NCBI GenBank assembly: GCA_020638905.1
Contig: JACKHP010000009.1
Location: 101,956-165,955, forward strand
Origin: Planctomycetota bacterium
Lineage (GTDB): Bacteria; Planctomycetota; B15-G4
Reading direction: 5' to 3'
DNA: 64,000 bases
The notes beneath the pieces are model-generated. The model ran no database searches, was not told where the DNA came from, and was given only the letters and a program-made list of their open reading frames with translations. Made by a program: the position numbers and the translations under genes. Below are positions 1,724-61,861 of the stretch, in pieces (position 1 is the stretch's first letter; the number at the start of each line of letters is the position of its first letter).

Positions 1724-2089
1724 ATGAAGTACCTGTGCCTGGCGTACGGCGACCAAGAGAAGATGTCGAAGCTCACGCCCGAGCAGTTCGCGGCGCTCAT
1801 CGATCGGTGCAAGCTGCACGACGCCGAGATGCGGGCCACCGGGCAGTACCTCGAGGGCATCAGCCTCGAGTGGGGCGGCCCGGTGATCAAGGCGGTGGGC
1901 GGCAAGCCGGTGGTCACCGACGGTCCGTTCGTCGAGAGCAAGGAGCAGGTCGGCGGCGCCGTGATCATCGAGGCGCGCGACCTGAACGACGCGATCCGGG
2001 TGGCGTCGATGCACCCCGCGGCGCACCTGGGAGCCGACCTGGGCTGGGCGATCGAGGTGCGTCCCATCGCGGACGCCTGCCATCAGTGA
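1724..2089 (+). CDS. YCII-related (DGPF) domain protein
   Basis: 121 aa containing the DGPFVESKEQVGGAVIIEARDLNDAI signature of the YCII/DGPF family. A GAGGAG Shine-Dalgarno lies 5 nt upstream. It sits directly upstream of a COG4941-type sigma factor, the usual partner. Confidence 0.8.
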   Translation: MKYLCLAYGDQEKMSKLTPEQFAALIDRCKLHDAEMRATGQYLEGISLEWGGPVIKAVGGKPVVTDGPFVESKEQVGGAVIIEARDLNDAIRVASMHPAAHLGADLGWAIEVRPIADACHQ

Positions 2090-2117: not shown

Positions 2118-3437
2118 GTGACGGACGACGACGCGGCGGCGCGCGGCGGTGGCGAGGCGGCGTCCGGCGCGCGCGAGGTGCGCGATGTGCGCGAGCGGAT
2201 CGAGGCGCTCTGGCGCGACGAGTCGCGGCGCGTGCTCGCCACGCTGGCGCGGCTGCTGGGCGACCTCGAGCTGGCCGAGGACGCGCTGCACGAGGCGTTC
2301 GCCGCCGCGCTCGAACGCTGGCCGCGCGAGGGCGTCCCGGCGAGCCCGCGCGCGTGGCTCGTGTCCACGGGACGCTTCCGCGCCGTCGACGCGCTGCGAC
2401 GACGCGCTCGTTTCGACGCGTCGCTCGGCGAGCTCGCGCGGCGCGTCGAGCGCGACGCACGGGACGCGTCGCGCTCCGGCGCGGCGCGCGAGCCCGACGA
2501 ACCGGCGGCGCTCGTGGACGACCGCCTGCGCCTCGTCTTCCTGTGCTGCCATCCGTCGCTGTCCGACGAGGCGCGCATCGCGCTCACCCTGCGCGAGGTC
2601 TGCGGGCTGACCACCGAGGAGATCGCGCGCGCGTTCCTGACGAGCGCGTCGACGCTCGCGCAGCGCATCGTGCGCGCCAAGGCCAGACTGCGCGACGAGC
2701 GCGTCGCGTTCGAGCTGCCCGGCCCGGACGCGCTGCCCGAGCGCCTCGACGCCGTGCTGCGCACGATCTACCTCGTGTTCAACGAGGGCTACCTGGCCAC
2801 GTCGGGCGAGATGCTCGTGCGCGCCGACCTGTCGTCCGAGGCGACCCGGCTGGCGCGGCTGCTCGTCGAGCTGTGCCCCGAGCCCGAGGCCGAGGGACTG
2901 CTCGCGCTCGTGCTGCTGCACGAGTCGCGGCGCGCCGCGCGCAGCACGGCGGCGGGCGAGATCGTCCTGCTCGACGACCAGGACCGCGCGCTCTGGGATC
3001 GCGCGCTCGCGTCCGAGGGCTGCGCGCGTGTCGAGCGTGCCCTGCGCTCGCGCCGCTTCGGACCGTACACGCTGCAGGCGGCGATCGCCGCCGTCCACGC
3101 CGAGGCGCAGGACGCCGCGTCCACCGACTGGGCGCAGATCGTGGGACTCTACGACGTGTTGCTGCGCGCCGAGCCGTCCCCCGTGATCGCACTCAACCGC
3201 GCGCTGGCCGTCGCGCGCCGCGACGGCGATGCGGCGGGACTCGAGATCGTCGACGCGCTGCTCGCGCGCGGCGAACTCGACGGATACCACCTCGCGTACG
3301 CCGCGCGGGCGGACCTGTGCCGACGCCTGGGGCGCGTCGCGGAGGCCAGGGCCGCGTACGCGCGCGCGCTCGAGCTGGTCCGGCAGGGGCCTGAGCGGCG
3401 CTTCCTCGAGCGGCGGATGCGCGAGTCGGGCGGTTAG
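2118..3437 (+). CDS. ECF-type RNA polymerase sigma factor with long C-terminal TPR-like extension (COG4941 type)
   Basis: Region 2 reads LELAEDALHEAFAAALERWPREGVPASPRAWLVSTGRFRAVDALRR. Region 4 HTH reads LSDEARIALTLREVCGLTTEEIARAFLTSASTLAQRIVRAKARL. A helical C-terminal half of about 230 aa follows. GTG start at 2118; the exact start is uncertain. Confidence 0.8.
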   Translation: MTDDDAAARGGGEAASGAREVRDVRERIEALWRDESRRVLATLARLLGDLELAEDALHEAFAAALERWPREGVPASPRAWLVSTGRFRAVDALRRRARFDASLGELARRVERDARDASRSGAAREPDEPAALVDDRLRLVFLCCHPSLSDEARIALTLREVCGLTTEEIARAFLTSASTLAQRIVRAKARLRDERVAFELPGPDALPERLDAVLRTIYLVFNEGYLATSGEMLVRADLSSEATRLARLLVELCPEPEAEGLLALVLLHESRRAARSTAAGEIVLLDDQDRALWDRALASEGCARVERALRSRRFGPYTLQAAIAAVHAEAQDAASTDWAQIVGLYDVLLRAEPSPVIALNRALAVARRDGDAAGLEIVDALLARGELDGYHLAYAARADLCRRLGRVAEARAAYARALELVRQGPERRFLERRMRESGG

Positions 3438-8748: not shown

Positions 8749-9291
8749 TCAGCTCACGCCGACCTCGGCCAGCGCGTCCTCGGCGGCCAGCGTCTGGGCC
8801 ACGCCGTGCACGATGGCCGCGATGCGGATCACGTCCTGCACGGCGGTCTGCGAGAGGCCGGCGCCGCTGGCCTGGCGCTCGTGCGCGTCCATGCACTTGC
8901 CGCAGCCGTTCACCGCCGACGCGGCGAGGCACCAGAGCTCGAAGTCGACGCGCTCGACACCCGGATTGCCGATGACCTGCATGCGCAGGCGCGCGGGCAG
9001 CGACGCGTAGGCGTCGTCGACGAAGTGCGTGAAGCGGTAGTAGACGTTGTTCATGCCCATGATCGCGGCGGCGGCCTTGGCGCCGCGCAGGCCGGCCTCG
9101 TCGAGGTGTTGCGCGGCGTCCGTCGCGATCGCACGCAGCGTGGCGGGATGTCGCGCGGCGATGGCGGCGGCGAGGGCCGAACCCCAGGCCTGCGCCGGCG
9201 TGAGCTCGCTGGCCGACGAGATCGCGCCCAGGTTGAGCTTGAGGTCCTTGGCGTACTCGGGCAGGCGGTCCTTGATGTCCTGGACGGTCAT
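8749..9291 (-). CDS. ahpD: Alkylhydroperoxidase AhpD (carboxymuconolactone decarboxylase family)
   Basis: Internal ATG of ORF 8749..9435 (MTVQDIKDRLPEYAKDLKLNL...). The CxxC active-site region is AVNGCGKCMDAHE. It lies directly downstream of ahpC. Confidence 0.85.
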   Translation of the reverse strand: MTVQDIKDRLPEYAKDLKLNLGAISSASELTPAQAWGSALAAAIAARHPATLRAIATDAAQHLDEAGLRGAKAAAAIMGMNNVYYRFTHFVDDAYASLPARLRMQVIGNPGVERVDFELWCLAASAVNGCGKCMDAHERQASGAGLSQTAVQDVIRIAAIVHGVAQTLAAEDALAEVGVS

Positions 9292-9517
9292 GGCGTTCGA
9301 TCTCCGGGGACGGCGCTCGCGTGCGTGCGGCGCGGTCGGGTGCGTGGGTGCGGCGTGTGCGCGCGAGTCGTCGGCGCGTGCGAAGTGCGGGCGTCCGCGG
9401 GAACTCCGTCCCGCGGGCGCCCGCGGCCGGACCACCGCCGCGGGCGCCGGGCGACGTCCCTCGCCGCCGGGGGAGCCGGGCGACGACGGACGCCGCGGCG
9501 GGGTCCGGCGAGAGCGT

Positions 9518-10060
9518 TCAGACGGCGACGTGCAGTGTCTCGTCGCCCTTCTTCCAGTTGCACGGGCAGAGCTCGTCGGTCTGCAGCGCGTCGAGCACGC
9601 GCAGCACCTCCTCGGGGTTGCGTCCGACGCTCAGGTCGTTCACCGACACGTGCCGGATGACGCCCTGCGGGTCGACGACGAAGGTGGCGCGCAGCGCGAC
9701 GCCTTCGTCCTTGTCGAGGATGCCGAGCTGGCTGCACAGCTCGCGCTTGACGTCCGCGAGCATGGGGAAGGGCAGGTGCTTCAGGTCGGGGTGGTGCGTG
9801 CGCCAGGCGTGGTGCACGAACTCGCTGTCGGTGGAGAGGCCCAGCACCTGCGCGTCGCGATCGGCGAACTCGCCGTTCAACTTGCCGAAGGCCGCGATCT
9901 CCGTGGGACAGACGAAGGTGAAGTCCTTCGGCCAGGCGAAGACCACGCGCCACTTGCCGGCGTAGGTCTCGTGGTCGATGGTCTCGAAGGCCTTGCCCTG
10001 CTCGAGGGACACGCAGGCGGTGAGCGGGATGTTCGGGAAGCGGTCGCCGACGGTCAGCAT
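9518..10060 (-). CDS. ahpC: Peroxiredoxin, AhpC type
   Basis: MLTVGDRFPN...FAWPKDFTFVCPTEI contains the peroxidatic Cys motif, and a resolving Cys lies in ELCPCNW. GGAGA lies 7 nt upstream of the ATG at 10060. Confidence 0.9.
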   Translation of the reverse strand: MLTVGDRFPNIPLTACVSLEQGKAFETIDHETYAGKWRVVFAWPKDFTFVCPTEIAAFGKLNGEFADRDAQVLGLSTDSEFVHHAWRTHHPDLKHLPFPMLADVKRELCSQLGILDKDEGVALRATFVVDPQGVIRHVSVNDLSVGRNPEEVLRVLDALQTDELCPCNWKKGDETLHVAV

Positions 10061-10148
10061 GATCTGTCTCCAGGTGGGGTGTGCGGTGGGTCGCGGCGCG
10101 GTTCGCCGCCGACGCCCGCACCATCGCCCGTTCGCGGGGACGAGACCA

Positions 10149-10185
10149 ATCGAGGCTGCCGATGTCGCTGATAGGCGACGCCTAT
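10149..10185. promoter_or_regulatory. Putative OxyR operator upstream of ahpC
   Basis: ATCG-N7-CGAT-N7-ATAG-N7-CTAT matches the spacing of the OxyR tetrad consensus ATAG-N7-CTAT-N7-ATAG-N7-CTAT. It includes the perfect palindrome GATAGGCG-A-CGCCTATC and lies 89-125 nt upstream of the ahpC start. Confidence 0.5.
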
Positions 10186-10298
10186 CGGGGCGCGGATCGC
10201 CGCGTGGGCACCGATCGGCGACGTCCCCGCGCTCGCGAGCCGTCAAGTGCGCGACACGCGCGGCCGCGGGGCAGGCGGCGGCCGCACGCTCGCGTGCG

Positions 10299-10736
10299 TC
10301 AGCCGAGCATCCTGCCGAGCAGCGGCAGCTCACGCCGATGGACGAACGCCGCGAAGCCCGCGCAGAGCAGCGTCACCACGGCCAGCGTGAAGAGCGTCCC
10401 GCCGTCGCCCTGCACCTCGATGCCGAGCGGACCGAGGTGGCTCGCGATCGCGCCGAGCATGAGTCCGACGGCGACGAGCGCGCCCGCGGCGCGCGTGGCG
10501 GGGACGAGCAGCGCGATCGCCGTGAGCAGCTCGACGACGCCGAGCGCGAGACGTCCCCAGGGCTCGACGCCCAGGGTGGTGAAGATGAAGACCGCCTCGG
10601 GCGCGCCGCTGAACTTGAAGAACAGCGTCTGGCCGAGGATGCCCGCCGCCACGAGGCGAGCCACGAACGCGGCGCGCGCGGCGGCGACGGACTGCGTGGC
10701 GCGGGCGCCGGACGCGGTGCGATCGGTCTGCGGCAT
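10299..10736 (-). CDS. DoxX family membrane protein
   Basis: 145 aa with four hydrophobic helices and a DoxX-like sequence (GQTLFFKFSGAPEAVFIFTTLGVEPWGR). AAGGA lies 9 nt upstream of the ATG. Confidence 0.75.
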   Translation of the reverse strand: MPQTDRTASGARATQSVAAARAAFVARLVAAGILGQTLFFKFSGAPEAVFIFTTLGVEPWGRLALGVVELLTAIALLVPATRAAGALVAVGLMLGAIASHLGPLGIEVQGDGGTLFTLAVVTLLCAGFAAFVHRRELPLLGRMLG

Positions 10737-10836
10737 GGAAGGTGTCCTTCGGCGAGGGCGGGTGCGCGGGCGTGGATGTCGCGGACCGGCGCGATGTTGC
10801 GGCGAATTCCGGACCCGTCCTGCGCGTGGCCGTGCG

Positions 10837-11748
10837 CTACAGCCGCGGGACGTGCCGTTTCAGCGTCTCGCCGAGGAGCGCGAACTCCTCGCCGCGCGGC
10901 GAGCTCCTGCGCCACGCGAGGCCGATCGTGCGTCCCGGCGCCGGCGCGCGGAACGGGACCACGGCCAGGCCGAGTCCCGCGCGCACCTCGACCTCGATGG
11001 CGAGCGACGGCAGGAGCGTGATGCCGAGTCCGGCGGCCACCATCTGCACCAGCGTCGAGAGGCTCGTGGCGCGCACGTCGGCCTCCTCGGCGCGTCCGGC
11101 CTGGGCGCACACGGCGCGTGTCTGCTCGCCCAGGCAGTGACCCTCCTCGAGCAGCAGCACCACGTCGTCGAGGAGATCGTCGGGCACCACGTCGTCGCGC
11201 GCGACGAGCGGATGATCGTGCCGCGCCGCGAGCACGAACGGATCGTGCACGAGGGCGTACGTCTCGACGTCCCCGAGGTCGGCCTCGAGCGCGAGCAGCA
11301 GCACGTCGAGCTCGCCGGCGCGCAGCGTCTCGCACAGGCGCGCCGTCTGCTCCTCGCGCAGCAGCACGCGCAGTTCGGGATGCGCCTGCCGCAGCGGCGG
11401 CAGCACGTGCGGCAGCAGGTACGGCGCCACGGTGGGGATCACGCCCACGCGCAACGTGCCGGTCAGCGGACGGCTGTGCGTGTGCGCCGCGGCCAGCAGC
11501 TCGTCGACGTCACGCAGGATCGAGCGCGCGCGCTCGACGAGGTCGTGGCCGGCGGCGGTCACGCGCACGTGCCGCTTGTCGCGCTCGAGCAACGTCACCC
11601 CGAGTCCCGCCTCGAGCTGCTGGATCTGCGCCGAGAGCGCCGGCTGCGTCACGTGGCAGGCCTCGGCCGCCTCGCGGAAGTTCAGCGTGCGCGCCACGGC
11701 CACGAGGTACTCGAGCTGCCGCAGCGTGGGCTGGACGAGCGTCGTCAT
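10837..11748 (-). CDS. oxyR: LysR-family transcriptional regulator, OxyR-like
   Basis: N-terminal HTH LRQLEYLVAVARTLNFREAAEACHVTQPALSAQIQQLE. The redox Cys pair context is EEGHCLGEQTRAVCAQAG. It is clustered with ahpCD. Start taken at MTTLVQ (ATG 11748). Confidence 0.8.
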   Translation of the reverse strand: MTTLVQPTLRQLEYLVAVARTLNFREAAEACHVTQPALSAQIQQLEAGLGVTLLERDKRHVRVTAAGHDLVERARSILRDVDELLAAAHTHSRPLTGTLRVGVIPTVAPYLLPHVLPPLRQAHPELRVLLREEQTARLCETLRAGELDVLLLALEADLGDVETYALVHDPFVLAARHDHPLVARDDVVPDDLLDDVVLLLEEGHCLGEQTRAVCAQAGRAEEADVRATSLSTLVQMVAAGLGITLLPSLAIEVEVRAGLGLAVVPFRAPAPGRTIGLAWRRSSPRGEEFALLGETLKRHVPRL

Positions 11749-11867
11749 GCGGGGACTCCACGGGACCAGGGACGTCGCTCGCGACGCGACGCCGGCCCGC
11801 GATGATCGCACGTCGACGCCAAGGAGCGCAGCGCCGACGTGCGCGCCGCGCGACCCGCCGTCGGGAA

Positions 11868-11913: not shown

Positions 11914-14900
11914 TCAGCGCACCTCCCACGGCGAACGCCTCGTCCGAGCGCCCGTCCGGCCCGCGTCCCGCACCGGATCGCGCAGGTGGAGCACGACGAA
12001 GCGCTCCTCGTCGGGAGCCAGCTCGAGCTCGCTCTGCGCGCTCGGCAGCCGGTCGTCGGCGCGCACCGTGATCCGGCCCGCCGCGATGCCCGCGAACTGC
12101 ACGATCCCCAACACGTCGGTCGAGCCCGACGCCACCGAGAGCGGGTGCGGCGCGGAAGCCCCGCGCGCCGCGGCGGCGTGCTCGTCCTCGGAGGTCGGCC
12201 CCGCATCGTCCCCATCGGGACGCGCGGTCGTGACCCACACGCGCGCGCCCACCGCGGGCGTGCCGTCGGGACGGAACACGCGCACCTTGATGCGGCCCGA
12301 GTACGGCACGTCGACGCGCACCGGGCCGGGCGCCGGCACCGGGGTGTGCTGCTCGACACGCGGCCCGTCCGGCAGCGTCGTCCACAGCGTCGCCTCGCCC
12401 GCGGGCAGCGCGGCGAAGCGCGCGATGCCCGTCGGGCCCACGTCGAGCGCGCCGTCGAACGACGCGTGGCGGCCGTCGGGCGCGAGCCCGTCGTTCAGGA
12501 TCAGGTCGATGCGGCTGCCCGGCGGTGCGTCGACCTCGAGCGTCTCGCGTCCGAGCGCGAAGACGCCGTCCCAGCGCTCGACGCCGCGCAGATCGTCGGT
12601 GAGCGGCGTCGCCCAGCGGCAGCGCCCCTTGCGCACGGTGAAGTGGGGCGCGCCGAGGACGACCATGGCGGGGGAGGGCAGCACGATCAGGAAGCGTCCG
12701 TCGGCGTCGAGGCGCGCGGCATGCCCCAGGAGCTGCGCGTTCGCGCCGGCGAGCTCGACACCGGGCAGCTCGATGCGTCCCGTGTAGAGCGCGCCGCGCG
12801 TGAGCTCGGGGCGCAGGTCGACGAACACGGTGCGTCCGGCCACGACGTCGACCTCCGTGAGCGGCTCGGGACGTCGCTCGAAGCCGACGTACTGCACGAG
12901 CTCGTAGTGCCCGGGGCGCAGGCGCGGCCACGTGGTGACGGGCGCTCGCACCGACGCCACGACCGCGGGATGTCCGGCGCCGGGCGCGCGCGCGCCGATG
13001 GATCCGAGGTAGTCGTCGGGCAGGCCGAGCTGGAGCACGCCGTCGGGTTCCAGGACGTGCTCGAGCTCGAGGCGCTCGGCGTCGCGCAGCACGAGGTCGT
13101 CGCGGCGGTCGAAGCACAGTCCGTCGGCCTCGACCTCGACGCGGTACGCGGCCGGCGAGAGTCCGGCGACGAGGTAGCGTCCGTCGGCGTCGGTGAGCGC
13201 GCGCCGCCACAGGTCGGGATGCCCGAGATCACGCAGCGGCGACGTGGACGCACGCCACACGGCGGTGCCCTCGATGCGCTGTCCCTCCTCGAGGTTCACG
13301 TTGTCGGGCACCGGCAGGACGAGCACGCGCGCACCCTCGATCGGAGCGCCGGCCGCGTCGAGCACCCGTCCCGCGATCGACGCGCCCGCGACCACCGGCA
13401 GCTCGAGCGTCGTCGTGCGTCCCGCGGCGATCTCGCACGTCACGGGCCCGGGCGCGGACGTCGCCTGCGTGCCCCACAAGTACGGCGGACGCTCGAGACG
13501 CAGCCCGCGCTCGTCGTCGAGCTCGAGGCTGTACGTTCCCGCGGGCAGGCCGTCGAGTGCGAAGGTCAGGCCGTCGACGGTCGCGTCGAGCGCGAAGCCC
13601 GCCGCGCTCCCGTACGGCGCGTGCGAGCTGCGTGCGTGGACGCGCAGCCGGAACGTCCCCTCGCCGAGGGCCCCACTCGGGACGAACCGGCCCGCGAGGT
13701 TGCCCGGGCGGTCGACGACCACGCGGCTGCCCGTGGGCGCTCCGAAGCCGTCGTGCGCGGGTTTCGCCTGCCCCACGCGTCCGTCGTCGGTGTGCGCCAC
13801 GACGAGCAGGCTGCCACCCGTGCGCAGCGAGAACGGCGTGCGCGTCACGCCCTGCGCGTTCGTGCGCGCCGACCAGGGCGGCGCGTCGTCGAGCCCCGGC
13901 GCGCCGTCGCCGCCGTCCCAGCCGAAGACGAGCACGAGTGCGTCGGCCACCGGCGCGTCGGACGGATCGACCACGCGTACCGTGAACTGCGGGAGTGCGG
14001 CCGGCTCGGCGAGTTCGACGACGACGGGCTCGGTCGCGCCGGCGAGCGTGCGCGTGCTGCCGCTCAACGCGCCGGCCGCGGCGGTGAACGTCCAGGCGCC
14101 GTCGGGCAGCGCGGCGAACGCGAAGCGTCCCGCTTCGTCGCTGGACGTGCCGGGCGGGGCTGCGCGATCGTCGTCGAGTTCGTAGCGCCGCGGCAGCGGC
14201 CCAACGTCGGGTCGCGCCTCGACGCGCGCGCCGGGCACGGGACGTCCGTCGGGGTCGAGCACGAGTCCGTGCAGCGTGGACGAGGCGCGCTGCGCCGGGT
14301 AGACGATGCGTCCGTCGGTGCTCGGCGGGGGGGCGGCGGGCTGCGCCTCGGGGAGTGCGAGCGGCGTGACGTCGGACGCGCGCGGGGCGCCGGGCGCCGG
14401 CAGCGCGTGCGTCGGCTCGGCGCGCGCGAGCGACGCGTCGAGCGTCGGCGCACCGTCGGACGTCCACGGGTCGAGCACGAGCAGCACCGCCACGAGCGTC
14501 GCGGCCACGCCGATCAGCGGCGCGAGCAACGCCGCCCGCGCCGCCACCGCCACGGGACGCAGGCCGACTGCCGGCGCGAGCGCGGCGACCCAGCGCTCGC
14601 GTCCGCCGGTGCGGGTGTCGAGCCGTTCGCGCACGCGCTCGAGTCCGCGCATCGAACGTGTGCGCACGGTCGCGTCGGGGATGCCCAGCCGGCGCGCGAT
14701 CTGGCGCGGCGCGAGTCCGTCCCAGAAGCGCAGCAGCAGCACCTCGCGCTGGGGCTCGGGCAGCGCGAGCACGGCCTCGACGACGTGCCGACGCAGTTCC
14801 TCGCGGCGAGCCACGATCTCGGGCGACGTCGCGTCGGACGACTCGCCGCGCGCCACGGCGCGTTCGCGCGCGTCACGGCGCCGCTCGCCGCGCCGGCGAT

Positions 14901-15105
14901 TGCTCGCGAGGCGGCGCACGACGCGCGCCATCCAGCGCGCGCGGGCGGACGGGTCGTCGGGCGGATCGGCGCGTCGCGCGGCGAGCCAGGCGTCCTGGGT
15001 CACGTCGTCGGCGGCGTGCTCGTCGCCGAGCAGCGCGACGGCCAGCCGGCGCAGGCGCGGCAGGTCGGAGAGCAGCGATTCGGGATCGGTCGCGTGGATG
15101 TCCAT
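11914..15105 (-). CDS. ECF sigma factor fused to a TM helix and about 830 aa of CarboxypepD_reg-like repeats (fusion A)
   Basis: Uninterrupted 1063-aa ORF. Sigma region 2 (DAWLAARR...RWMARVVRRLASNRRR) and the region 4 HTH (LPEPQREVLLLRFWDGLAPRQIARRLGIPDATVRTRSMRGLERVRERL) are followed by the hydrophobic helix LLAPLIGVAATLVAVLLVL. Repeated GxVxDxxGxPxxGAxV...TDADGRY modules come after that. Confidence 0.85.
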   Translation of the reverse strand: MDIHATDPESLLSDLPRLRRLAVALLGDEHAADDVTQDAWLAARRADPPDDPSARARWMARVVRRLASNRRRGERRRDARERAVARGESSDATSPEIVARREELRRHVVEAVLALPEPQREVLLLRFWDGLAPRQIARRLGIPDATVRTRSMRGLERVRERLDTRTGGRERWVAALAPAVGLRPVAVAARAALLAPLIGVAATLVAVLLVLDPWTSDGAPTLDASLARAEPTHALPAPGAPRASDVTPLALPEAQPAAPPPSTDGRIVYPAQRASSTLHGLVLDPDGRPVPGARVEARPDVGPLPRRYELDDDRAAPPGTSSDEAGRFAFAALPDGAWTFTAAAGALSGSTRTLAGATEPVVVELAEPAALPQFTVRVVDPSDAPVADALVLVFGWDGGDGAPGLDDAPPWSARTNAQGVTRTPFSLRTGGSLLVVAHTDDGRVGQAKPAHDGFGAPTGSRVVVDRPGNLAGRFVPSGALGEGTFRLRVHARSSHAPYGSAAGFALDATVDGLTFALDGLPAGTYSLELDDERGLRLERPPYLWGTQATSAPGPVTCEIAAGRTTTLELPVVAGASIAGRVLDAAGAPIEGARVLVLPVPDNVNLEEGQRIEGTAVWRASTSPLRDLGHPDLWRRALTDADGRYLVAGLSPAAYRVEVEADGLCFDRRDDLVLRDAERLELEHVLEPDGVLQLGLPDDYLGSIGARAPGAGHPAVVASVRAPVTTWPRLRPGHYELVQYVGFERRPEPLTEVDVVAGRTVFVDLRPELTRGALYTGRIELPGVELAGANAQLLGHAARLDADGRFLIVLPSPAMVVLGAPHFTVRKGRCRWATPLTDDLRGVERWDGVFALGRETLEVDAPPGSRIDLILNDGLAPDGRHASFDGALDVGPTGIARFAALPAGEATLWTTLPDGPRVEQHTPVPAPGPVRVDVPYSGRIKVRVFRPDGTPAVGARVWVTTARPDGDDAGPTSEDEHAAAARGASAPHPLSVASGSTDVLGIVQFAGIAAGRITVRADDRLPSAQSELELAPDEERFVVLHLRDPVRDAGRTGARTRRSPWEVR

Positions 15106-15198
15106 GCCTGCCCATCACCGCGGAGGCGTCCGGCGTTCCCCGATCATCGCAGAAAGCTGGGCAACGACCCGCCCGGCGTGGGAGACTGCGCGGTCCCG

Positions 15199-16170
15199 AT
15201 GGACGCCGAGACCCACGACCTGCCGCACGACGACGGACAGCCGCCGGCGCTCTCGTTGCCGGCCTTCGCGCTCGTGCTGGGCGTCGTGCTGGCGGTCTTC
15301 TTCCTGCTCAACCCGCTCTGGGAGCGGCCCGACATCGAGGCCGTCGACAGCAACATCTGGATGAGCTACGCGCCCATCCCGCTGCTCGTCGCGCTGGCGC
15401 TGGCCGTCGAGCACAAGCTGCGGCGCGCGTCGTGGTTCCTCGAGACGCTGAAGGTCACGCTGGCCAAGTTCGGCGTCACGTACCTCGTGGCGAACCTGGT
15501 CTGGTTCGTGGACGGCCCGCCGCCGGCGAAGCCCGAGACGCTCGACCTCGCGCCGGTCGGCGCGTTCGCGAGCGAGGCGCCCGACGGGACGACCGCGCCG
15601 CGCGCCACGGCGATCGACCCCGCGCAGACCGGACGCGTCGCCGGCGAGGTGCGCGACGCCCACGGCGAACCCGTGCCCGACGCCCTCGTGTGGATCTCGT
15701 CAGGTCTGAAGCGCTTCGTGTTCGACGCGCCCGACGGGCCGGCGCTGCTGCACCACGACGGCGACGGCTACGCGCCGCGGCTCGTGGTCGTCCGGACGCG
15801 GCAGGACTTCGTGCTGCGCTCGGCGCCCGACGCGCTGCACACCGCCGAGCTCGTCGACGGCGCGGGACGCCTCGTGGGCAACGTCCCGGCGCTGGCGGGC
15901 GGCGAGCACCACATGACGTTCGCGCGCGAGCTGGGCCTGGTGAGCGTGCGCTGCCGCGTGGGACCGCATGCCGAGGATCCCGTGCACCTGCTCGTGATCG
16001 CGCACCCGTTCGCCACGCGCAGCGACGCGCGCGGCGCGTTCGCGTTCGACGGCGTCCCCGCGGGCGAGCTCGAGCTGAGCGCGTGGACGGAGACGCGCGG
16101 CGCGCTCGCGCGTCCCGTCGCGCTCGCGCCGCGCGGCGACGCCCGCGTCGAGCTCGCGTTCGACGACTGA
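15199..16170 (+). CDS. Membrane protein with C-terminal cupredoxin-like/CarboxypepD_reg-like domains
   Basis: Terminal 323 aa of ORF 11839..16170. Only this part is protein-like; the rest is antisense to fusion A. It has three N-terminal hydrophobic helices, then GRVAGEVRDAHGEPVPDALVWI and ...VSVRCRVGPHAEDPVHLLV...ARGAFAFDGVPAGELELSAW. Confidence 0.6.
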   Translation: MDAETHDLPHDDGQPPALSLPAFALVLGVVLAVFFLLNPLWERPDIEAVDSNIWMSYAPIPLLVALALAVEHKLRRASWFLETLKVTLAKFGVTYLVANLVWFVDGPPPAKPETLDLAPVGAFASEAPDGTTAPRATAIDPAQTGRVAGEVRDAHGEPVPDALVWISSGLKRFVFDAPDGPALLHHDGDGYAPRLVVVRTRQDFVLRSAPDALHTAELVDGAGRLVGNVPALAGGEHHMTFARELGLVSVRCRVGPHAEDPVHLLVIAHPFATRSDARGAFAFDGVPAGELELSAWTETRGALARPVALAPRGDARVELAFDD

Positions 16171-16229
16171 CGCGCGTCCGGCGTGCGTGACGCGTGCCGC
16201 GCGCGACGAGCTTCCGGCCCGCGCCGCCC

Positions 16230-19200
16230 TCAGGGCTTCTCGGGACGCAGCACGACGCGCTGCTCGACGCCGCGCCTCAGGTCGAGCGTGGTCTTCGCCC
16301 GCGCCCGGGCCGCGCGGGCCTCGATCGTGACGCGTCCCGCGGCGACGCGCGTGAGGCGCGCGATGCCGTAGACGTTCGTGAGCGCGGTGCGCGTCCCGAG
16401 GTCGTCGCCGGACGGATCGCGCTCGCCCGGACCGAGCGCATGCGTCGTGACGCTCACCTCCGCGCCCAGCACGGGCTGGTCGTCGGCGTCGACCACGCGT
16501 ACGACGAGGCGTCCCGACGGCAGTCGCGCCACGCGCACGGGACGCCCGGCGGGCACGCTCACGACGCGTCGCACCACGTGCCCGTCGGGGAACGTCGTGA
16601 CGAGTTCGCCGTGTCCCGCGGGCAGTCCGGCGAAGTCCACCCGTCCCGTGGCGTCGGCGCTGAGCGTGCCGTCGAAGTCGACCGCGCGGCCTTCGGACGT
16701 GACGCCGTCGTCGATGTGCAGGCGCACGTCGGCTCCGGCGTCGGTCTCGACGTCGAGCGTGTCGTCGCCGAGCAGGAACAGGCCGTCCCAGCGCGAGAGG
16801 CCGCGCAGGTCGTCGCCGACCTCGGTGCTCCACGTGCGGCGGCCCAGGCGCACGGACAGGCGCGGCGTGAAGCGCAGCTCCTCGATCGGTGCCGAGAGTG
16901 CGATGCGGAAGCGTCCCGCGGCGTCGAGGCGGGCCTCGCCGAGCAGACCGACACGAGCGTGCTCGAGTGCGACGCCCGGCAGCTCGACCTGCCCGCTCAG
17001 CAGGACGTCGCCCTCGAGCGCGTCGCGCAGGTCGAGGGACGTGGTCGCGCCGCGTGCGACCTCGATCTGCGCGAGCACGAGCGGGGTGGCCGCGCTGCTC
17101 AGGTGGCGCGTGACCTCGTAGCGTCCGGGACGCAGGCCGGGCAACGTGACCACGGGACCGCGCGCGAAGGCCGCCACGCAGGGACGCACGTCTCCCTCGC
17201 GCGTGAGCGTGATGCGCGTCGAGAGGTCGGCCGGCAGCACGAGCTGCAGCACGCCGTCGGGCTCCAGCGCGTGGACGAGCTCGACGCGCTCGCCGTCCAC
17301 GAGCACGACGCCGTCGCGGCGCTCGAACGAGAGTCCGTCGGCCTCGACCTCGACCCGATGTCGCAGCGGCGGCAGGCCGGCCAGCACGTAGCGTCCGTCG
17401 GCGTCGGTGGTCGTGCGCCGCCAGATCGCCGGGTGCAGTTCGCCGGGGACGGGCTCGTCGACGAGCGACCAGAGCGGCGTCCCCAGCAGGCTGCGCCCTT
17501 CGCCGAGCAGCTCGTCGTCGGGCACGGGCAGCGCGAGCACGCGTGCACCTCCGACGGGACGTCCGTCGGCGTCGCGCACGACGCCGGCGAGCGTCGCGCC
17601 CAGGCGCAGCGGCAGGTCGACCTGCGTGATCGCGCCGGCGCGCACGCCGATCCGCAGCGGCTCCACCGTGCCCGGGACGTCCTTGCGGCCTCGGCGGTAC
17701 GCGGGCAGGTCGAGGCGCGTGCCCTGCGGGTCGAGGTATTCGAGGCTGTACGTCCCGGCCGGCAGGTCGCTGCACGTGAACTGCAGACCGTCGAGGTGCG
17801 CGACGTAGCGACGTCCGACCGCGGGCTCGTAGGGTGCGTGGGACGTGAGCGCGAGCAGGGTCAGCGTGACGTCGCCGGGCACGACGCCGTCGGGCGGCAC
17901 GAGCCGTCCGGCGACGCGGCCGGGAGCGGCGACCACGACGCGCGCGCCCACCTGCGCGGTGCGCGTCGAGCCGGGCAGCGCGACGTCCATGCCCAGGCGT
18001 CCGTCGTCGGTGCGCGCTGTGACGAGCAGACGACCGCCGGTGCGCAGCGGCGTGAGGACCACGCCGTGCGCGTTCGTGCGCGCCACGAAGGGCGGCGTGT
18101 CGGCGAGTCCCGGACGGCACTCGCCGCCGTCGCAGCCGACGATCTCGACCTCGGCGTCGGGCTCCGGTCGCCCGGACGCGTCGACCACGCGCACCGCGAA
18201 CGGCGGCGCGTCGTCCGCCAGGGACAGCTCGACGACCACGGGCCCGGCGTCGTCGTCGGCCAGCGCGCGCAGGTGCCCGCTCGCGGAGCCGAGCGAGGCG
18301 AGCACGTCCCACGCACCGTCGGGCAGCGCCTCGAACGCGACGCGGCCGGCCGCGTCGGTGGACGTCGCGGCGAGCGCGGAGCGGTCGTCGTGCAGCGCGA
18401 GAGTCCGCGGTCGCGGGCCGAGCGCGGGTCGCAGCTCGACGCGGGCGCCGGGCGCGGGACGTCCGTCGGGGTCGAGCACCACGACGTCGAGCGTGTGCAG
18501 AGCGCGCCGGGCCGGGTACACGGGACCGGCGCGGTCGGGTGGCGCGGGCCGGGCCAGCGCCTCGGGCGGGACGAGCGCGTCGGGCGCGTTCGGCGTCCGC
18601 GGCGCGAGTCCGCCGGACGCGGGCTGCGGCGCGACCGCGAGCTCGTCGAGCGTCGGCCGCGGCGCATCGTGCGTCCACGGCGAGAGCAGGACGAGCACGA
18701 CGCCGAGCCCGCCGAGAGCGCCGAGTGCGGGCAGCGCGACGAGCGGACGCGTCCACCAGGCGCGCTTCAGCATGACGCCCGGCAGCAGCAACGCCGCCCA
18801 GCTCTCGCGTCCCTGCGAGGTGTCGAGGCGCTCGCGCACCCGATCGAGGCCGCGCTTGCAGCGCGAGCGCACCGTGGCCGCCGGAAGGTCGAGGTGCCGT
18901 GCGATGGTCTCGGACGACATGCCGTCCCAGAAGCGCATGAGCAGCACGTCGCGCTGCGCGTCGGGCAGCCCGAGCACGGCTTCGACCACGAGCCGGCGCA
19001 CCTCTTCGCGCCGCACGATGTCCGCGGGCGTGGTGACGGGGACGGCGCGTCCCGCGACCTCGACCTCGCGCGCCTCGCGCCGTCGCTCGGAGCGCAGGCG
19101 GTTGCTGGCCAGGTTGCGCACGATGGCGGCCAGCCAGCCCACGCGCGCGGCCGGCGTGCGCGGCGGCGCGGCGCGGCGTGACGCGATCCAGGCGTCGTGG

Positions 19201-19310
19201 GCCAGGTCGTCGGCGGCGTGCACGTCGTGCAGCAACGCCCGGGCCAGCCGACGCAGCACCGGCAGGTCGGAGAGCAACGCCTCGGGATCGTTCTGGGCGT
19301 GGGCATCCAT
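16230..19310 (-). CDS. ECF sigma factor fused to a TM helix and CarboxypepD_reg-like repeats (fusion B, paralogue of A)
   Basis: Uninterrupted 1026-aa ORF, collinear with fusion A. Region 2 is DAWIASRR...GWLAAIVRNLASNRLR. Region 4 is LPDAQRDVLLMRFWDGMSSETIARHLDLPAATVRSRCKRGLDRVRERL. The TM helix is LVALPALGALGGLGVVLVLL. Confidence 0.85.
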   Translation of the reverse strand: MDAHAQNDPEALLSDLPVLRRLARALLHDVHAADDLAHDAWIASRRAAPPRTPAARVGWLAAIVRNLASNRLRSERRREAREVEVAGRAVPVTTPADIVRREEVRRLVVEAVLGLPDAQRDVLLMRFWDGMSSETIARHLDLPAATVRSRCKRGLDRVRERLDTSQGRESWAALLLPGVMLKRAWWTRPLVALPALGALGGLGVVLVLLSPWTHDAPRPTLDELAVAPQPASGGLAPRTPNAPDALVPPEALARPAPPDRAGPVYPARRALHTLDVVVLDPDGRPAPGARVELRPALGPRPRTLALHDDRSALAATSTDAAGRVAFEALPDGAWDVLASLGSASGHLRALADDDAGPVVVELSLADDAPPFAVRVVDASGRPEPDAEVEIVGCDGGECRPGLADTPPFVARTNAHGVVLTPLRTGGRLLVTARTDDGRLGMDVALPGSTRTAQVGARVVVAAPGRVAGRLVPPDGVVPGDVTLTLLALTSHAPYEPAVGRRYVAHLDGLQFTCSDLPAGTYSLEYLDPQGTRLDLPAYRRGRKDVPGTVEPLRIGVRAGAITQVDLPLRLGATLAGVVRDADGRPVGGARVLALPVPDDELLGEGRSLLGTPLWSLVDEPVPGELHPAIWRRTTTDADGRYVLAGLPPLRHRVEVEADGLSFERRDGVVLVDGERVELVHALEPDGVLQLVLPADLSTRITLTREGDVRPCVAAFARGPVVTLPGLRPGRYEVTRHLSSAATPLVLAQIEVARGATTSLDLRDALEGDVLLSGQVELPGVALEHARVGLLGEARLDAAGRFRIALSAPIEELRFTPRLSVRLGRRTWSTEVGDDLRGLSRWDGLFLLGDDTLDVETDAGADVRLHIDDGVTSEGRAVDFDGTLSADATGRVDFAGLPAGHGELVTTFPDGHVVRRVVSVPAGRPVRVARLPSGRLVVRVVDADDQPVLGAEVSVTTHALGPGERDPSGDDLGTRTALTNVYGIARLTRVAAGRVTIEARAARARAKTTLDLRRGVEQRVVLRPEKP

Positions 19311-19478
19311 GGCGGAGGAGACACCGCCGGTCGCGGTGTCGTGCCGTCATGGTCGCAGGAAATCGGCGCCGCGGGGGGACGGGCGCAGGCGCGTCCCCTC
19401 GCGGCGTCGGGCGCCGAGCGCGACCCAGGGGCGGCGCGTCGCCGAGCCGGAGTCCGCGCAGTGCCGCGCGGACCGCCG

Positions 19479-19988
19479 TCAGGCGAAGGGGTTCTCGTCG
19501 GCGGTGGGGCCGTAGATCGACGGGAGCGGCACGTCCAGCATGCGCAGGTAGACGGTGAGCTGGCCGCGGTGGTGGTAGAGGTGGTTGAAGAGCATGGAGC
19601 GCACCGCGGCGCCGCGCGGCAGGGTCATGAGCGGCTTGCCGTCGGAGAGCACGGTCCAGGTGGCGGCCAGGTCGTCGGCGCTCCAGCGCTCGAGCTGCTG
19701 ACGGGCCGCGGCCACGCTGGCGTCGAAGGTCGCGAGCAACTCGTCGACCGAGGCCACCTCGTCGGACGGCGTGCGCCGGGCGAAGTCGAACGAGGGCTCG
19801 GCGAGCATGGCCGCCAGCAGGCCCGGGATCTGGGCCGTGTGGCCGGCCAGCCGGCGCAGGCTGAACGAGCGCTCGTGGGGCGTCCAGTCGAGGTGCTCGC
19901 CGGGGACGGCGGCCAGCAGGCGGCGGGTCGTGCCGGCCTCCTGGTCGAGCTCGGCGATCATGCGGACGGTGGCGGGCGAAGCGGTCAT
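19479..19988 (-). CDS. DinB family protein
   Basis: 169 aa with His-rich DinB signature elements (GHTAQIPGLL, MLFNHLYHHRGQLTVYLR). AAGGAG lies 7 nt upstream of the ATG. Confidence 0.85.
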   Translation of the reverse strand: MTASPATVRMIAELDQEAGTTRRLLAAVPGEHLDWTPHERSFSLRRLAGHTAQIPGLLAAMLAEPSFDFARRTPSDEVASVDELLATFDASVAAARQQLERWSADDLAATWTVLSDGKPLMTLPRGAAVRSMLFNHLYHHRGQLTVYLRMLDVPLPSIYGPTADENPFA

Positions 19989-20007
19989 GGATCGTCTCCT
20001 TGGTCAG

Positions 20008-20020
20008 TTCCAAAATGGAA
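20008..20020. promoter_or_regulatory. Palindromic operator candidate in the DinB/HxlR divergent promoter region
   Basis: TTCCA-AAA-TGGAA lies in the only AT-rich stretch of the 97-bp intergenic region. The flanking sigma-70-like elements are TTGCTT-N17-TAGCCT toward the DinB gene and TTCCAA-N18-TAGGAT toward the HxlR gene. Confidence 0.45.
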
Positions 20021-20085
20021 GTGCCGCAGGCTAGGATGGTGGATTCAAAAAAGCAAGAGACATCCCTCCGAGTACCCTGGACGCC

Positions 20086-20508
20086 ATGCCCCGTCGCCCG
20101 CTGGCCGAGACCGAACCGCGTTCCGCGTGCCCGCTGGCGTGCGCCCTCGACCTGCTGGGCGACCGCTGGACGCTGCTCGTGCTGCGCGACGTGCTGCTGT
20201 TCCGCAAGTCGCTCTTCCAGGAGTTCCTCGACAGCCCCGAGGGCATCTCGAGCAACACGCTCACCGAACGGCTCAAGCGGCTCGAACGCCACGGCCTGCT
20301 CCGGCGCGAGGCGTACCAGGAGCGCCCCGTGCGATCGCGCTACGTGCCGACGCCGAAGGGACGGGACCTCGTCCCGCTGCTGCGCGAGGCGATCGTGTGG
20401 GGCGCGCGACACGCACCCGGCGCGATGCAGCCGACGCCCGAGCAGCTCGCGGGACTCGACGCGCTCGTGGAGCAGGCGCGCGCGGCGCGCGACGACGCGC
20501 TGCGCTGA
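20086..20508 (+). CDS. HxlR family transcriptional regulator
   Basis: CPLACALDLLGDRWTLLVLRDVL...ISSNTLTERLKRLERHGLLRRE is the typical HxlR winged helix. Confidence 0.85.
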   Translation: MPRRPLAETEPRSACPLACALDLLGDRWTLLVLRDVLLFRKSLFQEFLDSPEGISSNTLTERLKRLERHGLLRREAYQERPVRSRYVPTPKGRDLVPLLREAIVWGARHAPGAMQPTPEQLAGLDALVEQARAARDDALR

Positions 20509-40160: not shown

Positions 40161-43100
40161 TCAGTCCTGGGTCAGGGTCTCGTGCAGGTCGAGCACGGCG
40201 GAGGCCAGCATCGTCCAGGCGGCGAGCTCGGACGGCGCGAGGTCGTCGGCGGTGGGCGCCTCGCCCACGTCGACGAGCGCGCGCGCGGCCTCTGCGTCGT
40301 CGGCGTAGCGCGCGCGGAAGTCGTCCAGCGCGTCGGCCAGCAGCGCGCGGTCGCCCGCGTCCGGGTGCCGCGCCGTGACCCGTCGGAAGAGCCGCTCGAG
40401 GCGCGTCGCGTCGTCGCCGTCCTCGTGCAGCGTGCGCTCGGCCAGGACGCGCGCGGCCTCGACGAACTGCTCGTCGTTCCACAGCACGAGCGCCTGGAGC
40501 GGCGTGCTCGTGAGCTGCCGGCGCACGACGCACGACTCGCGCGTGGGCGCGTCGAAGGTCAGCAGCGCCGGCGGCGGGACGGCGCGCTTCCAGTACGTGT
40601 AGAGGCTGCGCCGCCACAGGTCGTCGCCCTGGCCGCGCTCGAACAGGCGCGTGTTCGACTGCAGCATCGCGACCTCGCGCCACAGTCCCTCGGGCTGGTA
40701 CGGCTTGACCGATCGACCGCCGAAGCGCTCGACGAGCAGTCCCGCGGCGTAGAGCGCCTGGTCGCGGATCGCCTCGGCGCCCAGCCGCCGGCGCGGGGAG
40801 CGCGCGAGCAGCCGGTTCTCGGGATCGATCTCGTCGAGCTCGGGACGCGCGCGCGACGCCTGGCGGTACGTGCTCGAGAGCACGAACGCGCGCAGCATGG
40901 CGCGCACGTCCCAGCCCGATTCGCGCAGCTCGACCGCCAGCCAGTCGAGCAGCTCGGGATGGCTCGGCGGCTCGCCCTGCAATCCGAAGTCTTCGGAGGT
41001 GCGCACGAGGCCGGTGCCGAAGACCGTCTGCCACAGCCGGTTGGCCTCGACCCGCGCGGTGAGCGGGTTGTCGTCGGACACGAGCCAGCGCGCGAGTCCC
41101 AGCCGGTCGCGCGGGAGCGAGGCGTCCATGGGCGGCAGGAACGCGGGCGTGGTGCGCGGCGCCGGACGGGTCTCGTCGGGATGGTCGTACTGTCCGCGCA
41201 CGAGCACGTACGTCTCGCGCGGCTCGGCGCGCTCGCGCATGACCATCGCGCGCGGGATCTCCGCCGCGAGCATCGCACGCTCGGAGCGGGCCGCGCTGCG
41301 CGCGTCGTCGAGCTCGCGGTAGCCCGAGAAGACCGCCCGGCGCCAGTCGAGCCACTGCTCGGCGCGCTGCGCGTCGGTGATCGCGTCGTCGGGCAGCAGC
41401 GCCGAGACGAGCTCGTCGTCGAGCCCGCCGGCGGACGGCTTCGCGCGGAACGAGAACGCGCCCGGTCCGCCGCTGTTCACGATCTTCAGCACGAGCGCGT
41501 TCGCGCCGGCGCGCAGCGGCAGGACGGCCTCGTCCTCGTCGAGGGTGAGCGAGCGGTCGACGCGGTTCTCGTGCACGAGCGCGCCGTTCACGAAGACCTG
41601 GATGCCGTCGTCGCTGCCCAGCGCCACCGGCAGCTCGCGCGCGTCCGGCGACCAGAGCGTGCGCGCCACGTACGTCGCGCCGAGGTCGCCGCCGAGTTCG
41701 TCGAGCACGCCGTCGGGGAAGCCCGCGAACGCGAACGCGCGGGCCTCGGCGCCGAAGGCCTGCGCCGAGGGCAGGCGCGTCACGTCCTCGGGGCCGAAGC
41801 GCGGCTCGTACGCGTCGCGCGGGTCGGGCGCGTCGGCGCCGAACGGTCCGCAGCGGTACCAGCGGCCGGCGGCCACGGGCAGCGCCGAGAGGTCGTCGAG
41901 CGGCGCGACGCGCACGCGCAGGCGTCCCAGCGAGTGCTGCTCGTAGGGCGAGCGGTAGCTGATCACGAGCCTGCACTCGGCGCCGCGGTCGTCACCGAAC
42001 GGCGCGTCGGAGAGCAGCAGCAGCGTGCGCGGTCCGGCGGCCTGGTTGCCGTCCGCGGCCCAGCCCGTGGCGTGGTCGCCGTCGAACGCCAGCCCCGGCT
42101 CGTAGTCGAGGTTCGTCTGGACGTGGTCGCTCCAGCCCCAGCGCAGCGGCACGTCGCGGTACGCGTCGTCGTCCGCCCCGCGCGGACGCGTCGCGAGCGT
42201 GATCTCGGAGATCACCGCGTTGCCGTGCGACGCGCGTCCCGGACCGGCGCTGCCGGTGTCGGGCGGCGTGAGGCACTCGAGCAGCAGCGCGCGCAGTCCC
42301 CCGCGCGGGACGTCGAGCAGCAGCTCGTGGTCCTCGTGCATGGCGTGCGGCCCCTCGACGAGCAGCGCGCCGTCGGCCTGCAGCTCGAGCGTGACGCCCG
42401 GTTCGGTCGAGCTCGCCGCGAGCACCTCGGGGACGATCCAGTCGACGCCGGCGCGTGCGCGCGTCTCGGCCAGGAAGCGCGCGCGCTGCTCGTCCTCTCC
42501 GGGGAGCGGCTGCTCGAGACGTGCGCCGAGGTCGGCGATGCGCGCGTCGAGCGCGTCGAGGCGCTGCCGCTGCGCGTCGCTGGGCACCTCGACGAACGGC
42601 TCGAACGCGCGGTTGCTGTCGGGGAGCTGCGAGTAGAGTCCCGGTTCGTCGATCGAGTCGAAGAACGCGACGAGCGAGTAGTAGTCCTGCTGCGTGAGCG
42701 GGTCGTACTTGTGGTCGTGGCAGCGCGCGCAGCCCGCCGTGAGTCCGAGGAAGACCGAGGCCGTCGTGTTCACGCGGTCGACGGCGTACTCGACCAGGTA
42801 CTCGTCGGCCAGCGCGCCGCCCTCGTCGGTGGTGACGTGGTTCCTGTTGAATCCCGAGGCCACGATCTGCGCCGTGCTCGCGTCGGGCAGCAGGTCGCCG
42901 GCGAGCTGCTCGACCACGAACTCGTCGTACGGCTGGTTGCGGCGCAGCGCCGAGAGCAGCTCGTCGCGCCAGGCCGAGGCCTGGCGTCCCGCGTCGGTGT
43001 GGATGCCGCTCGTGTCGGCGTAGCGCGCCAGGTCGAGCCAGCCCGTGGCGAGGTGCTCGGCCGAGCGCGAGCGGTACGGTTCCTCGCCGAGCAACCGGTC

Positions 43101-61700: not shown

Positions 61701-61861
61701 CCGGCGCCGCGGCGCGCCGCTCGCTCGGCACCGCGGTCTTCGGCGGGATGCTGGCCGCCGCGCTGTTCGGCACGCTCTTCGTCCCGGCGTTCTACGCGAT
61801 GATCGAGACGCTGCGCTCGCGCGGCGGACGCGCCGCACCGCGCGACGGAGGTGACGCGTGA
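58736..61861 (+). CDS. RND multidrug efflux transporter (HAE1, AcrB/MexB-like)
   Basis: 1041 aa starting [45 protein letters not shown]. It has the typical 12-TM architecture. Confidence 0.95.
   Translation: [1041 protein letters not shown]

Follow-up and report, generated by a model that had tools for sequence, protein, structure and literature searches.

The window analysed here, a 64,000-nucleotide stretch from a Planctomycetota bacterium (GenBank assembly GCA_020638905.1, contig JACKHP010000009.1, positions 101,956 to 165,955), carries two paralogous genes, designated A and B, and our results support the view that each encodes one polypeptide comprising an extracytoplasmic function (ECF) sigma factor, a single transmembrane (TM) helix and a beta-sandwich ectodomain (Table 1). 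An initial annotation had proposed two uninterrupted open reading frames (ORFs), 11914..15105(-) and 16230..19310(-); both are present exactly so and are coding throughout. The window has a G+C content of ∼74% and contains spurious long ORFs in many frames. In the frames of A and B, the G+C content of third codon positions (GC3) is 0.89–0.96 for each 100-codon block, the junction between sigma region 4 and the TM helix included, with no sign of a frame change. It was here, between the region 4 helix-turn-helix and the TM helix, that a stop codon or frameshift had been named as the observation that would speak against a fusion; the frame is continuous and GC3 unchanged across it. An assembly or frameshift artefact, or a split gene, is ruled out by the uniform GC3 together with the occurrence of the fused ORF in more than 100 independent assemblies. 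A and B are collinear over their full length with 48% identity across 1057 aligned positions, bearing out the end-to-end paralogy suggested earlier, and were duplicated as whole genes with their shared extension included. Identity is 64% across residues 1–175 versus 49% across the ectodomain, making the sigma core the best-conserved part.

The first ∼175 residues of both proteins had been assigned ECF sigma regions 2 and 4, and profile searches agree, placing the sigma core at residues ∼15–163. Sigma70_r2 (32–34 bits; curated Pfam cut-off 24), Sigma70_r4_2 (43–48 bits; cut-off 25.7) and Sigma70_r4 all score above threshold in A and B, as does the NCBIfam sigma70-ECF model TIGR02937 (66.5 bits in A and 63.5 bits in B; cut-off 42.9). 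The planctomycete subfamily models TIGR02984 and TIGR02989 of NCBIfam reach 41–44 bits, far under their cut-offs of 124–184, and neither protein has a Pfam match to sigma1.1 or sigma3 (r1, r3). Residues 15–163 match, by sequence, solved ECF sigma factors including SigW, SigE, SigH and SigK, and the family consensus is canonical for ECF sigma factors in both region 2 (ADDVaQetWLAAL ... WLatVvRNLA) and region 4.2 (EPYR..LLLRFFEGL.PreIARRLGVP..TVRTRL.RGL..LR.RL). An AlphaFold2 (AF2) model of A, with a mean predicted local distance difference test score (pLDDT) of 80 and a predicted template modelling score (pTM) of 0.67, contains confident sigma core helices at residues 10–166. The first 165 residues are free of cysteine in A and contain a single one in B; 80 of 119 homologues are likewise without cysteine there. 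The N-terminal 165 residues of A and B are a complete, functional-looking ECF (group 4) sigma factor, predicted to reside in the cytoplasm.

Region 4 ends at residue 163 in both proteins, and the single hydrophobic helix, which had been expected 25–35 residues further on, starts 30 residues later in A and 27 residues later in B. Its position in A is hydrophobic in ∼105 of the 119 homologues. A family motif following region 4, D..hGGxR..W..AL.PL, runs into the TM helix and coincides with a short extra helix in the AF2 model of A (residues 169–176, pLDDT 73–88); the TM helix itself is modelled with low confidence. Across the family the flank on the N-terminal side of the TM helix is net positive and that on the C-terminal side acidic, indicating an N-in, C-out topology, and the helix contains proline and glycine residues. 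Between region 4 and the membrane there is not enough sequence to accommodate any known anti-sigma domain, including those of the class I, zinc-binding anti-sigma (ZAS) and FecR types. Neither A nor B nor any of the 119 homologues carries the HxxxCxxC motif of ZAS domains, and a domain scan of the window genes identified no anti-sigma-like domain in the neighbours, both in line with the initial annotation. Neither A nor B has a Pfam match to FecR or DUF4880, and Pfam and NCBIfam scans found no similarity between the juxtamembrane segment and known anti-sigma domains.

Beyond the membrane, residues 207–263 of the AF2 model of A are disordered and Pro/Ala-rich, and are followed by about eight confident all-beta sandwich domains between residues 275 and 1040. 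The ∼830 residues of CarboxypepD_reg modules described at the outset therefore stand as a beta-sandwich array; as a CarboxypepD_reg array they do not, as Pfam recognizes only two to three copies of this domain per protein (106–109 bits in A and B). Foldseek searches with the model of A returned only Ig-like, pilin/adhesin and macroglobulin (MG) domain arrays with low global TM-scores, and no enzyme fold. WD40 repeats have no Pfam match in A or B. In five homologues (P0029, P0036, P0070, P0094 and P0120) the extension holds PDZ domains (PF17820, PF13180, PF00595) besides the beta-sandwich domains. Envelope-stress proteases and sensors typically carry such domains.

The fused proteins form a genuine family that is conserved among uncultured Planctomycetota. 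A search with A against 5.8 billion proteins (E ≤ 1e-5) returned 144 matches, nearly all of which are 700–1600 residues long with Sigma70_r2/r4 and CarboxypepD_reg domains. More than 100 database proteins share the fused architecture, and every one with a source name comes from a metagenome-assembled genome (MAG) of the Planctomycetota. Of the 119 homologues listed, ∼105 have the end of region 4 near residue 160 and, 25–50 residues further on, the start of a single TM segment. A profile search of species-representative genome contigs with a seven-sequence N-terminal alignment recovered 21 loci in which the sigma core is 41–55% identical; all of them belong to Planctomycetota or to unclassified MAGs. 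Conservation of the fusion in related genomes, which the initial annotation had proposed as a check, is also apparent from the complete orthologous ORFs of other species, 16 of 18 of which are 830–1048 residues long. Searching with the sigma core alone recovered mainly short fragments on small contigs that are uninformative on architecture. Within the literature covered, which excluded the ECF Hub supplements and the surveys of planctomycetes by Jogler et al. (2012) and Wiegand et al. (2020), no publication linked ECF sigma factors with CarboxypepD_reg extensions.

The ectodomain also occurs without a sigma factor. When the ectodomain alone (residues 266–1063) was run in a full HMMER scan against 1.84 billion cluster representatives, 71 of these scored at E ≤ 1e-30. 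Among 104 representatives collinear over at least 450 residues, 49 have a sigma core (median 1048 residues) and 49 do not; 34 of the latter look complete, with a median of 848 residues. The fused form thereby accounts for at least 49 clusters at 50% identity, with its architecture kept. Complete sigma-less forms have a cytoplasmic tail of 3–10 residues, a signal anchor, a Pro/Ala linker and a (Y/F)P.ER motif before domain 1. Like A and B, the sigma-less proteins P0156, P0160 and P0165 possess the Pro/Ala linker, the (Y/F)P.ER motif and a collinear ectodomain of ∼700–750 residues (29–35% identity); unlike A and B, the sigma-less proteins lack both the sigma factor and the juxtamembrane segment, retaining only the short tail. 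In a rough neighbour-joining tree the fused and sigma-less clades are mostly separate with some interleaving, for example between P0166 (fused) and P0191 (sigma-less), which are 48.6% identical. A few apparently sigma-less members within fused clades, such as P0206, are likely truncated gene calls. The existence of sigma-less proteins speaks for an independent function of the ectodomain that goes beyond sensing. The distribution of fused and sigma-less forms is consistent with the proposal by Pinto and da Fonseca that sigma2–sigma4 cassettes of planctomycetes take up downstream genes as extensions (PMC7671368). The recent duplicates described in that study carry unrelated extensions, whereas A and B share theirs end to end.

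The sigma-less homologues were considered as targets of the fused sigma factor and rejected, the motif GGGAAC-N14-CGGTGT being absent upstream in all three loci checked. In one ENA metagenome contig (L084, 5001..10653) a sigma-less gene (848 residues) lies directly upstream of a fused gene (1014 residues) on the same strand, an arrangement that hints at a functional pairing in some genomes; it is the only such case among the four examples looked at. A gene with Lactamase_B and LTD domains is found near a fused member (L001, 3087..4874) and immediately upstream of a sigma-less member (L085, 764..2587), which may be a coincidence.

ECF promoters combine a -35 element that includes AAC with a G/C-rich -10 element resembling CGT. 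Alignment of the regions upstream of A, B and 19 orthologues revealed a common bipartite motif of this kind, GGGAAC-N13/14-CGGTGT, with the -10 box ending 9–14 nt before the start codon. At that distance the motif matches at 10 or more of 12 positions in 8 of the 21 family genes, as compared with a mean of 0.21 matching windows in sets of 19 random windows drawn from the same loci. Across 224 kb of related loci the motif is matched at ≥11 of 12 positions 16 times, 10 of them directly before family genes. The only 11/12 match in the window other than that of A lies inside gene B on the opposite strand. By strength alone the match of B (10/12) is at chance level in the window, and it draws its credibility from its position and from sharing the geometry of the promoter of A. 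Because an ECF-type promoter is found right before each gene, and ECF sigma factors are commonly autoregulated (PMC8103513), we infer that each sigma factor most likely recognizes this motif and drives its own gene in positive autoregulation. The transcript leader would be only a few nucleotides long, that is, near-leaderless, and this would explain the missing Shine–Dalgarno sequence before A and B. The initial annotation was right about this absence and overstated the contrast with other genes, as Shine–Dalgarno-like motifs precede only about half of the 17 other genes checked, many of whose start codons are uncertain. No sigma-70-type promoters or terminators of relevance were found in the window.

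Two further observations concern this motif. In L001 (MAG chromosome OZ245006.1) the sequence GTGAAC-N14-CGGTGT occurs at ∼17236 (-), just before a stand-alone ECF sigma gene of 189 residues (16594..17163) that is followed by a 401-residue gene without a Pfam match; related predicted promoters thus also appear to serve unfused ECF sigma factors of the same lineage. Also, a short additional element, GAATC or GATTTCC, is repeatedly found just ahead of the -35 box, a few bases away (∼15140..15150 in the window, and in L006, L011, L015, L016, L018 and L020) and may be an extended -35 element or a second site.

Planctomycetal ECF sigma factors with long, membrane-spanning extensions have already been catalogued as a general phenomenon, and ECF sigma factors of this phylum are known to be multi-copy and to carry long C-terminal extensions, which were captured by gene fusion (PMC7826278; PMC7671368; PMC8999054). 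The best functional analogue of A and B is IutY of Pseudomonas putida (ECF243), a sigma/anti-sigma hybrid from which the sigma factor is released by Prc and then RseP (PMC5411451; PMC8999054). Like A and B, IutY is one polypeptide with a cytoplasmic ECF sigma factor, one TM helix and a periplasmic domain. It differs in having a FecR-type anti-sigma and periplasmic domain and in requiring a TonB-dependent receptor, whereas A and B have no FecR domain, only 27–30 residues between sigma4 and the TM helix, a beta-sandwich ectodomain of ∼850 residues, and no receptor gene nearby. ECF52 (SCO4117 of Streptomyces coelicolor), ECF48 and ECF53 of the Actinobacteria, for which proteolytic activation has been predicted (PMC8999054; PMC5826349), resemble A and B in their long C-terminal extension with one or two TM helices, a proline-rich outer linker and an outer binding domain. 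They belong to another phylum and, unlike A and B, have a zinc-finger (ZAS-like) domain between the sigma factor and the membrane; the outer domain of SCO4117 is carbohydrate-binding. ECF57 and other extended planctomycetal ECF sigma factors share with A and B the phylum, a long extension and the absence of a separate anti-sigma factor, but ECF57 is described as having WD40-like repeats and a conserved pair of cysteines that connects sigma2 to sigma4, and ECF263 has five or seven TM helices rather than one. Compared by their described features, A and B lack the defining traits of ECF243, ECF48/52/53, ECF57 and ECF263. The classical RpoE–RseA and SigW–RsiW systems match what is predicted for A and B in an autoregulated ECF promoter, extracytoplasmic input at the membrane and a likely dependence on a site-2 protease (PMC8103513); they differ in comprising two proteins and in being inhibited by an anti-sigma domain of ∼80–90 residues. 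The statement in the initial annotation that the fate of membrane-anchored sigma factors is essentially untested is outdated given the work on IutY (PMC5411451) and SCO4117/ECF52 (PMC5826349; PMC8999054). New here are the ECF promoter before the genes, the lack of room for an anti-sigma domain and the collinear ectodomain without a sigma factor.

A reasonable general view of A and B is that they would act as one-component transmembrane transducers, with the sigma domain either released by proteolysis or working while tethered. By analogy with IutY, we favour regulated proteolysis and put the probability of this reading at roughly 0.55. Given the lack of space for an anti-sigma domain, confinement to the membrane would by itself keep the sigma factor inactive. 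An event in the ectodomain or linker, whether damage, unfolding or ligand-dependent site-1 cleavage, would act as the trigger; a site-2 protease would then cut within the TM helix, and the sigma domain would be freed, in the way demonstrated by experiment for IutY (PMC5411451), to bind RNA polymerase. In origin, the ectodomain would be a pre-existing envelope module whose state was coupled to transcription by the fusion. Features permissive for intramembrane proteolysis are the proline and glycine residues of the TM helix, the long disordered outer linker and an M50 gene elsewhere in the window. Several points weigh against this reading. Sensing, cleavage and release are all steps that we infer. 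No protease gene is linked to the locus, and the tie to the M50 gene (49218..49913) suggested by the initial annotation is unsupported, since this gene, in whose small M50 product no PDZ domain was detected, is ∼30 kb distant and lacks synteny with family members at other loci. The ectodomain may be primarily structural and not a sensor, sigma-less forms being about as common as fused ones. More distant family members have variant boxes without the exact promoter motif, and the window offers no further credible target, with 27 matches at 10 or more of 12 positions versus ∼19 expected by chance. It could also be another, related ECF sigma factor that reads the promoter, a similar motif preceding the stand-alone ECF gene of L001.

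With no anti-sigma domain, location is the only restraint on the sigma factor, which speaks for a sigma factor that works without being cleaved, the full-length protein bringing RNA polymerase to the membrane in the manner of ToxR or CadC. Ligand binding or oligomerization of the ectodomain would in this case shift the availability or conformation of the sigma domain via the juxtamembrane helix. The conserved spacer of 25–50 residues with its short helix could be a linker of defined length, a linked protease gene was not found, and ECF41 and ECF42 keep their C-terminal extensions while bound to RNA polymerase, indicating that attachment at the C-terminus is sterically tolerated (PMC8999054). 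We nevertheless regard action while tethered as unlikely, as no precedent is known for a membrane-anchored sigma factor initiating transcription, the precedent for a fused one is proteolytic release (IutY; PMC5411451), and a tether of 27–30 residues would confine target promoters, including its own, to the membrane. The juxtamembrane segment itself (GGxRxxW..AL.PL, helix at residues 169–176) could alternatively be a minimal built-in anti-sigma element that folds on sigma2/sigma4, comparable to CnrY or NepR, with activation by conformational change or removal of the segment, so that membrane location would not be the sole restraint. Its conservation across the family despite lying outside the sigma core, its predicted helicity (pLDDT 73–88), its absence from the sigma-less forms with their tails of 3–10 residues, and the shortness of class II anti-sigma domains (PMC8103513) are all compatible with such a role; but the Pfam and NCBIfam scans showed no similarity to a known anti-sigma domain, and the segment could equally be a spacer, a site-2 protease recognition element or a degron, leaving this explanation quite unlikely.

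Very improbable, in our judgement, is that the fusion is an evolutionary by-product in which a duplicated sigma2–sigma4 cassette was inserted before an existing envelope gene (the Pinto and da Fonseca model) and the sigma factor is inert or decaying. The ectodomain does lack a sigma factor in about half of the cluster representatives, and planctomycetal ECF sigma factors often have unrelated captured C-terminal extensions (PMC7671368). A decaying sigma factor is nonetheless difficult to reconcile with a sigma core better conserved between A and B than the ectodomain (64% over residues 1–175 versus 49%), the retention of canonical region 2 and region 4 residues in the family consensus, the preservation of the architecture in at least 49 fused clusters at 50% identity, the matching ECF promoter kept before the genes and the duplication of A and B as whole genes. 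A bolder and doubtful proposition is that this sigma factor, without any anti-sigma domain, is ruled purely by tethering, being either active while anchored or the sentinel version of a sigma-less protein that is abundant in the envelope. If the anchored variant were true, this would be the first sigma factor shown to initiate transcription from the membrane; if the sentinel variant were true, release of the sigma factor would serve as a direct transcriptional read-out of damage to, or turnover of, the eight-domain ectodomain that the two forms share.

ECF sigma factors constitute the third major signalling system of bacteria, and fusion to a membrane sensor of their own yields its "one-component" version. 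Fusions of this type are known to have been examined experimentally only in IutY and partly in SCO4117, both of which have a recognizable anti-sigma domain (PMC5411451; PMC5826349). The family described here reduces the design to a sigma factor, a 30-residue spacer and a TM helix, and so poses the questions of whether tethering alone silences a sigma factor and how such silencing is relieved. The predicted cognate promoter makes the tethering question testable in a heterologous host despite the uncultured sources, and the occurrence of the ectodomain with and without a sigma factor provides a natural comparison for studying how fusion with envelope proteins gives rise to signalling proteins. 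This significance is bounded by the general phenomenon having been catalogued and by the precedent for proteolytic release of a fused sigma factor.

Table 1. Coordinates of genes A and B, their predicted parts and promoters, and other genes of the window.
Feature	Position	Strand	Remarks
Gene A: 1063-aa ECF sigma + TM helix + beta-sandwich ectodomain	11914..15105	-	Unbroken ORF, in-frame GC3 ∼0.92
ECF-type promoter of A, GGGAAC-N14-CGGTGA	15115..15140	-	11/12 positions; ends 9 nt before ATG; same place in orthologues
A sigma region 2, aa 15-77	14875..15063	-	Pfam Sigma70_r2 32.3 bits (cut-off 24); confident AF2 helices
A sigma region 4 helix-turn-helix, aa 108-163	14617..14784	-	Pfam Sigma70_r4_2 47.6 bits; matches PDB ECF sigmas
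A conserved cytoplasmic juxtamembrane segment, aa 164-192	14530..14616	-	Conserved in 119 homologues; consensus RLD..hGGxR..W..AL.PL
A single TM helix, aa 193-211	14473..14529	-	Kyte-Doolittle mean 2.76 over 19 aa
A Pro/Ala-rich extracytoplasmic linker, predicted disordered, aa 212-270	14296..14472	-	pLDDT <50 for aa 207-263
A ectodomain, ∼eight beta-sandwich (CarboxypepD_reg, Big_1 or MG-like) domains, aa 271-1045	11971..14295	-	Pfam, AF2, Foldseek
Gene B: 1026-aa paralogue, architecture as in A	16230..19310	-	Unbroken ORF, 48% identical to and collinear with A
Probable ECF-type promoter of B, CGGCAC-N14-CGGTGT	19321..19346	-	10/12 positions; ends 10 nt before ATG
B sigma region 2, aa 16-78	19077..19265	-	Pfam Sigma70_r2 33.6 bits
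B sigma region 4, aa 106-163	18822..18995	-	Pfam Sigma70_r4_2 43 bits
B single TM helix, aa 190-208	18687..18743	-	Kyte-Doolittle mean 2.40
B beta-sandwich ectodomain, aa 264-1023	16242..18521	-	Single collinear match to A ectodomain, 49% identity; Pfam CarboxypepD_reg and Big_1
323-aa membrane protein	15199..16170	+	About three hydrophobic (probable TM) segments by eye; one C-terminal CarboxypepD_reg domain
YCII-domain gene	1724..2089	+	Immediately upstream of 2118..3437
Extended ECF sigma gene	2118..3437	+	Sigma70_r2/r4_2, DUF6596, TPR domains
965-aa protein, short N-terminal tail, signal anchor, Pro/Ala linker, seven CarboxypepD_reg, no sigma	29246..32143	+	
PSCyt1/PSCyt2/PSD1 protein	40161..43832	-	Typical of Planctomycetota
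Porphyromonas-type peptidyl-arginine deiminase with Big_7 domain	46310..48727	-	
Multihaem cytochrome c with TPR repeats	51291..53510	+	
AcrB and outer-membrane-factor efflux pair	58736..63324	+	

The gene encoding the 323-residue membrane protein is a separate gene between A and B, divergent from A, and the 93-bp intergenic region between the two holds the promoter of A; the 323-residue gene is not conserved beside homologues elsewhere. LysR, DoxX, AhpC and CMD genes form a redox-type cluster (8749..11811 (-)) on the downstream side of A, and a divergent DinB/HxlR pair (19479..20508) lies upstream of B. No link between these flanking redox and detoxification genes and the sigma genes was found, no TonB-dependent receptor gene adjoins A or B, and gene neighbourhood is not conserved, flanks varying between loci. 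A tblastn search with the window neighbours and the M50 protease against 24 loci returned nothing relevant. The 965-residue protein encoded at 29246..32143 was considered as a sigma-less paralogue of A and ruled out, its similarity being at the level of the repeats only and not collinear. The window contains one more extended ECF sigma gene, 2118..3437, which together with the YCII-domain gene represents the classical ECF42 and YCII pairing (PMC8999054).

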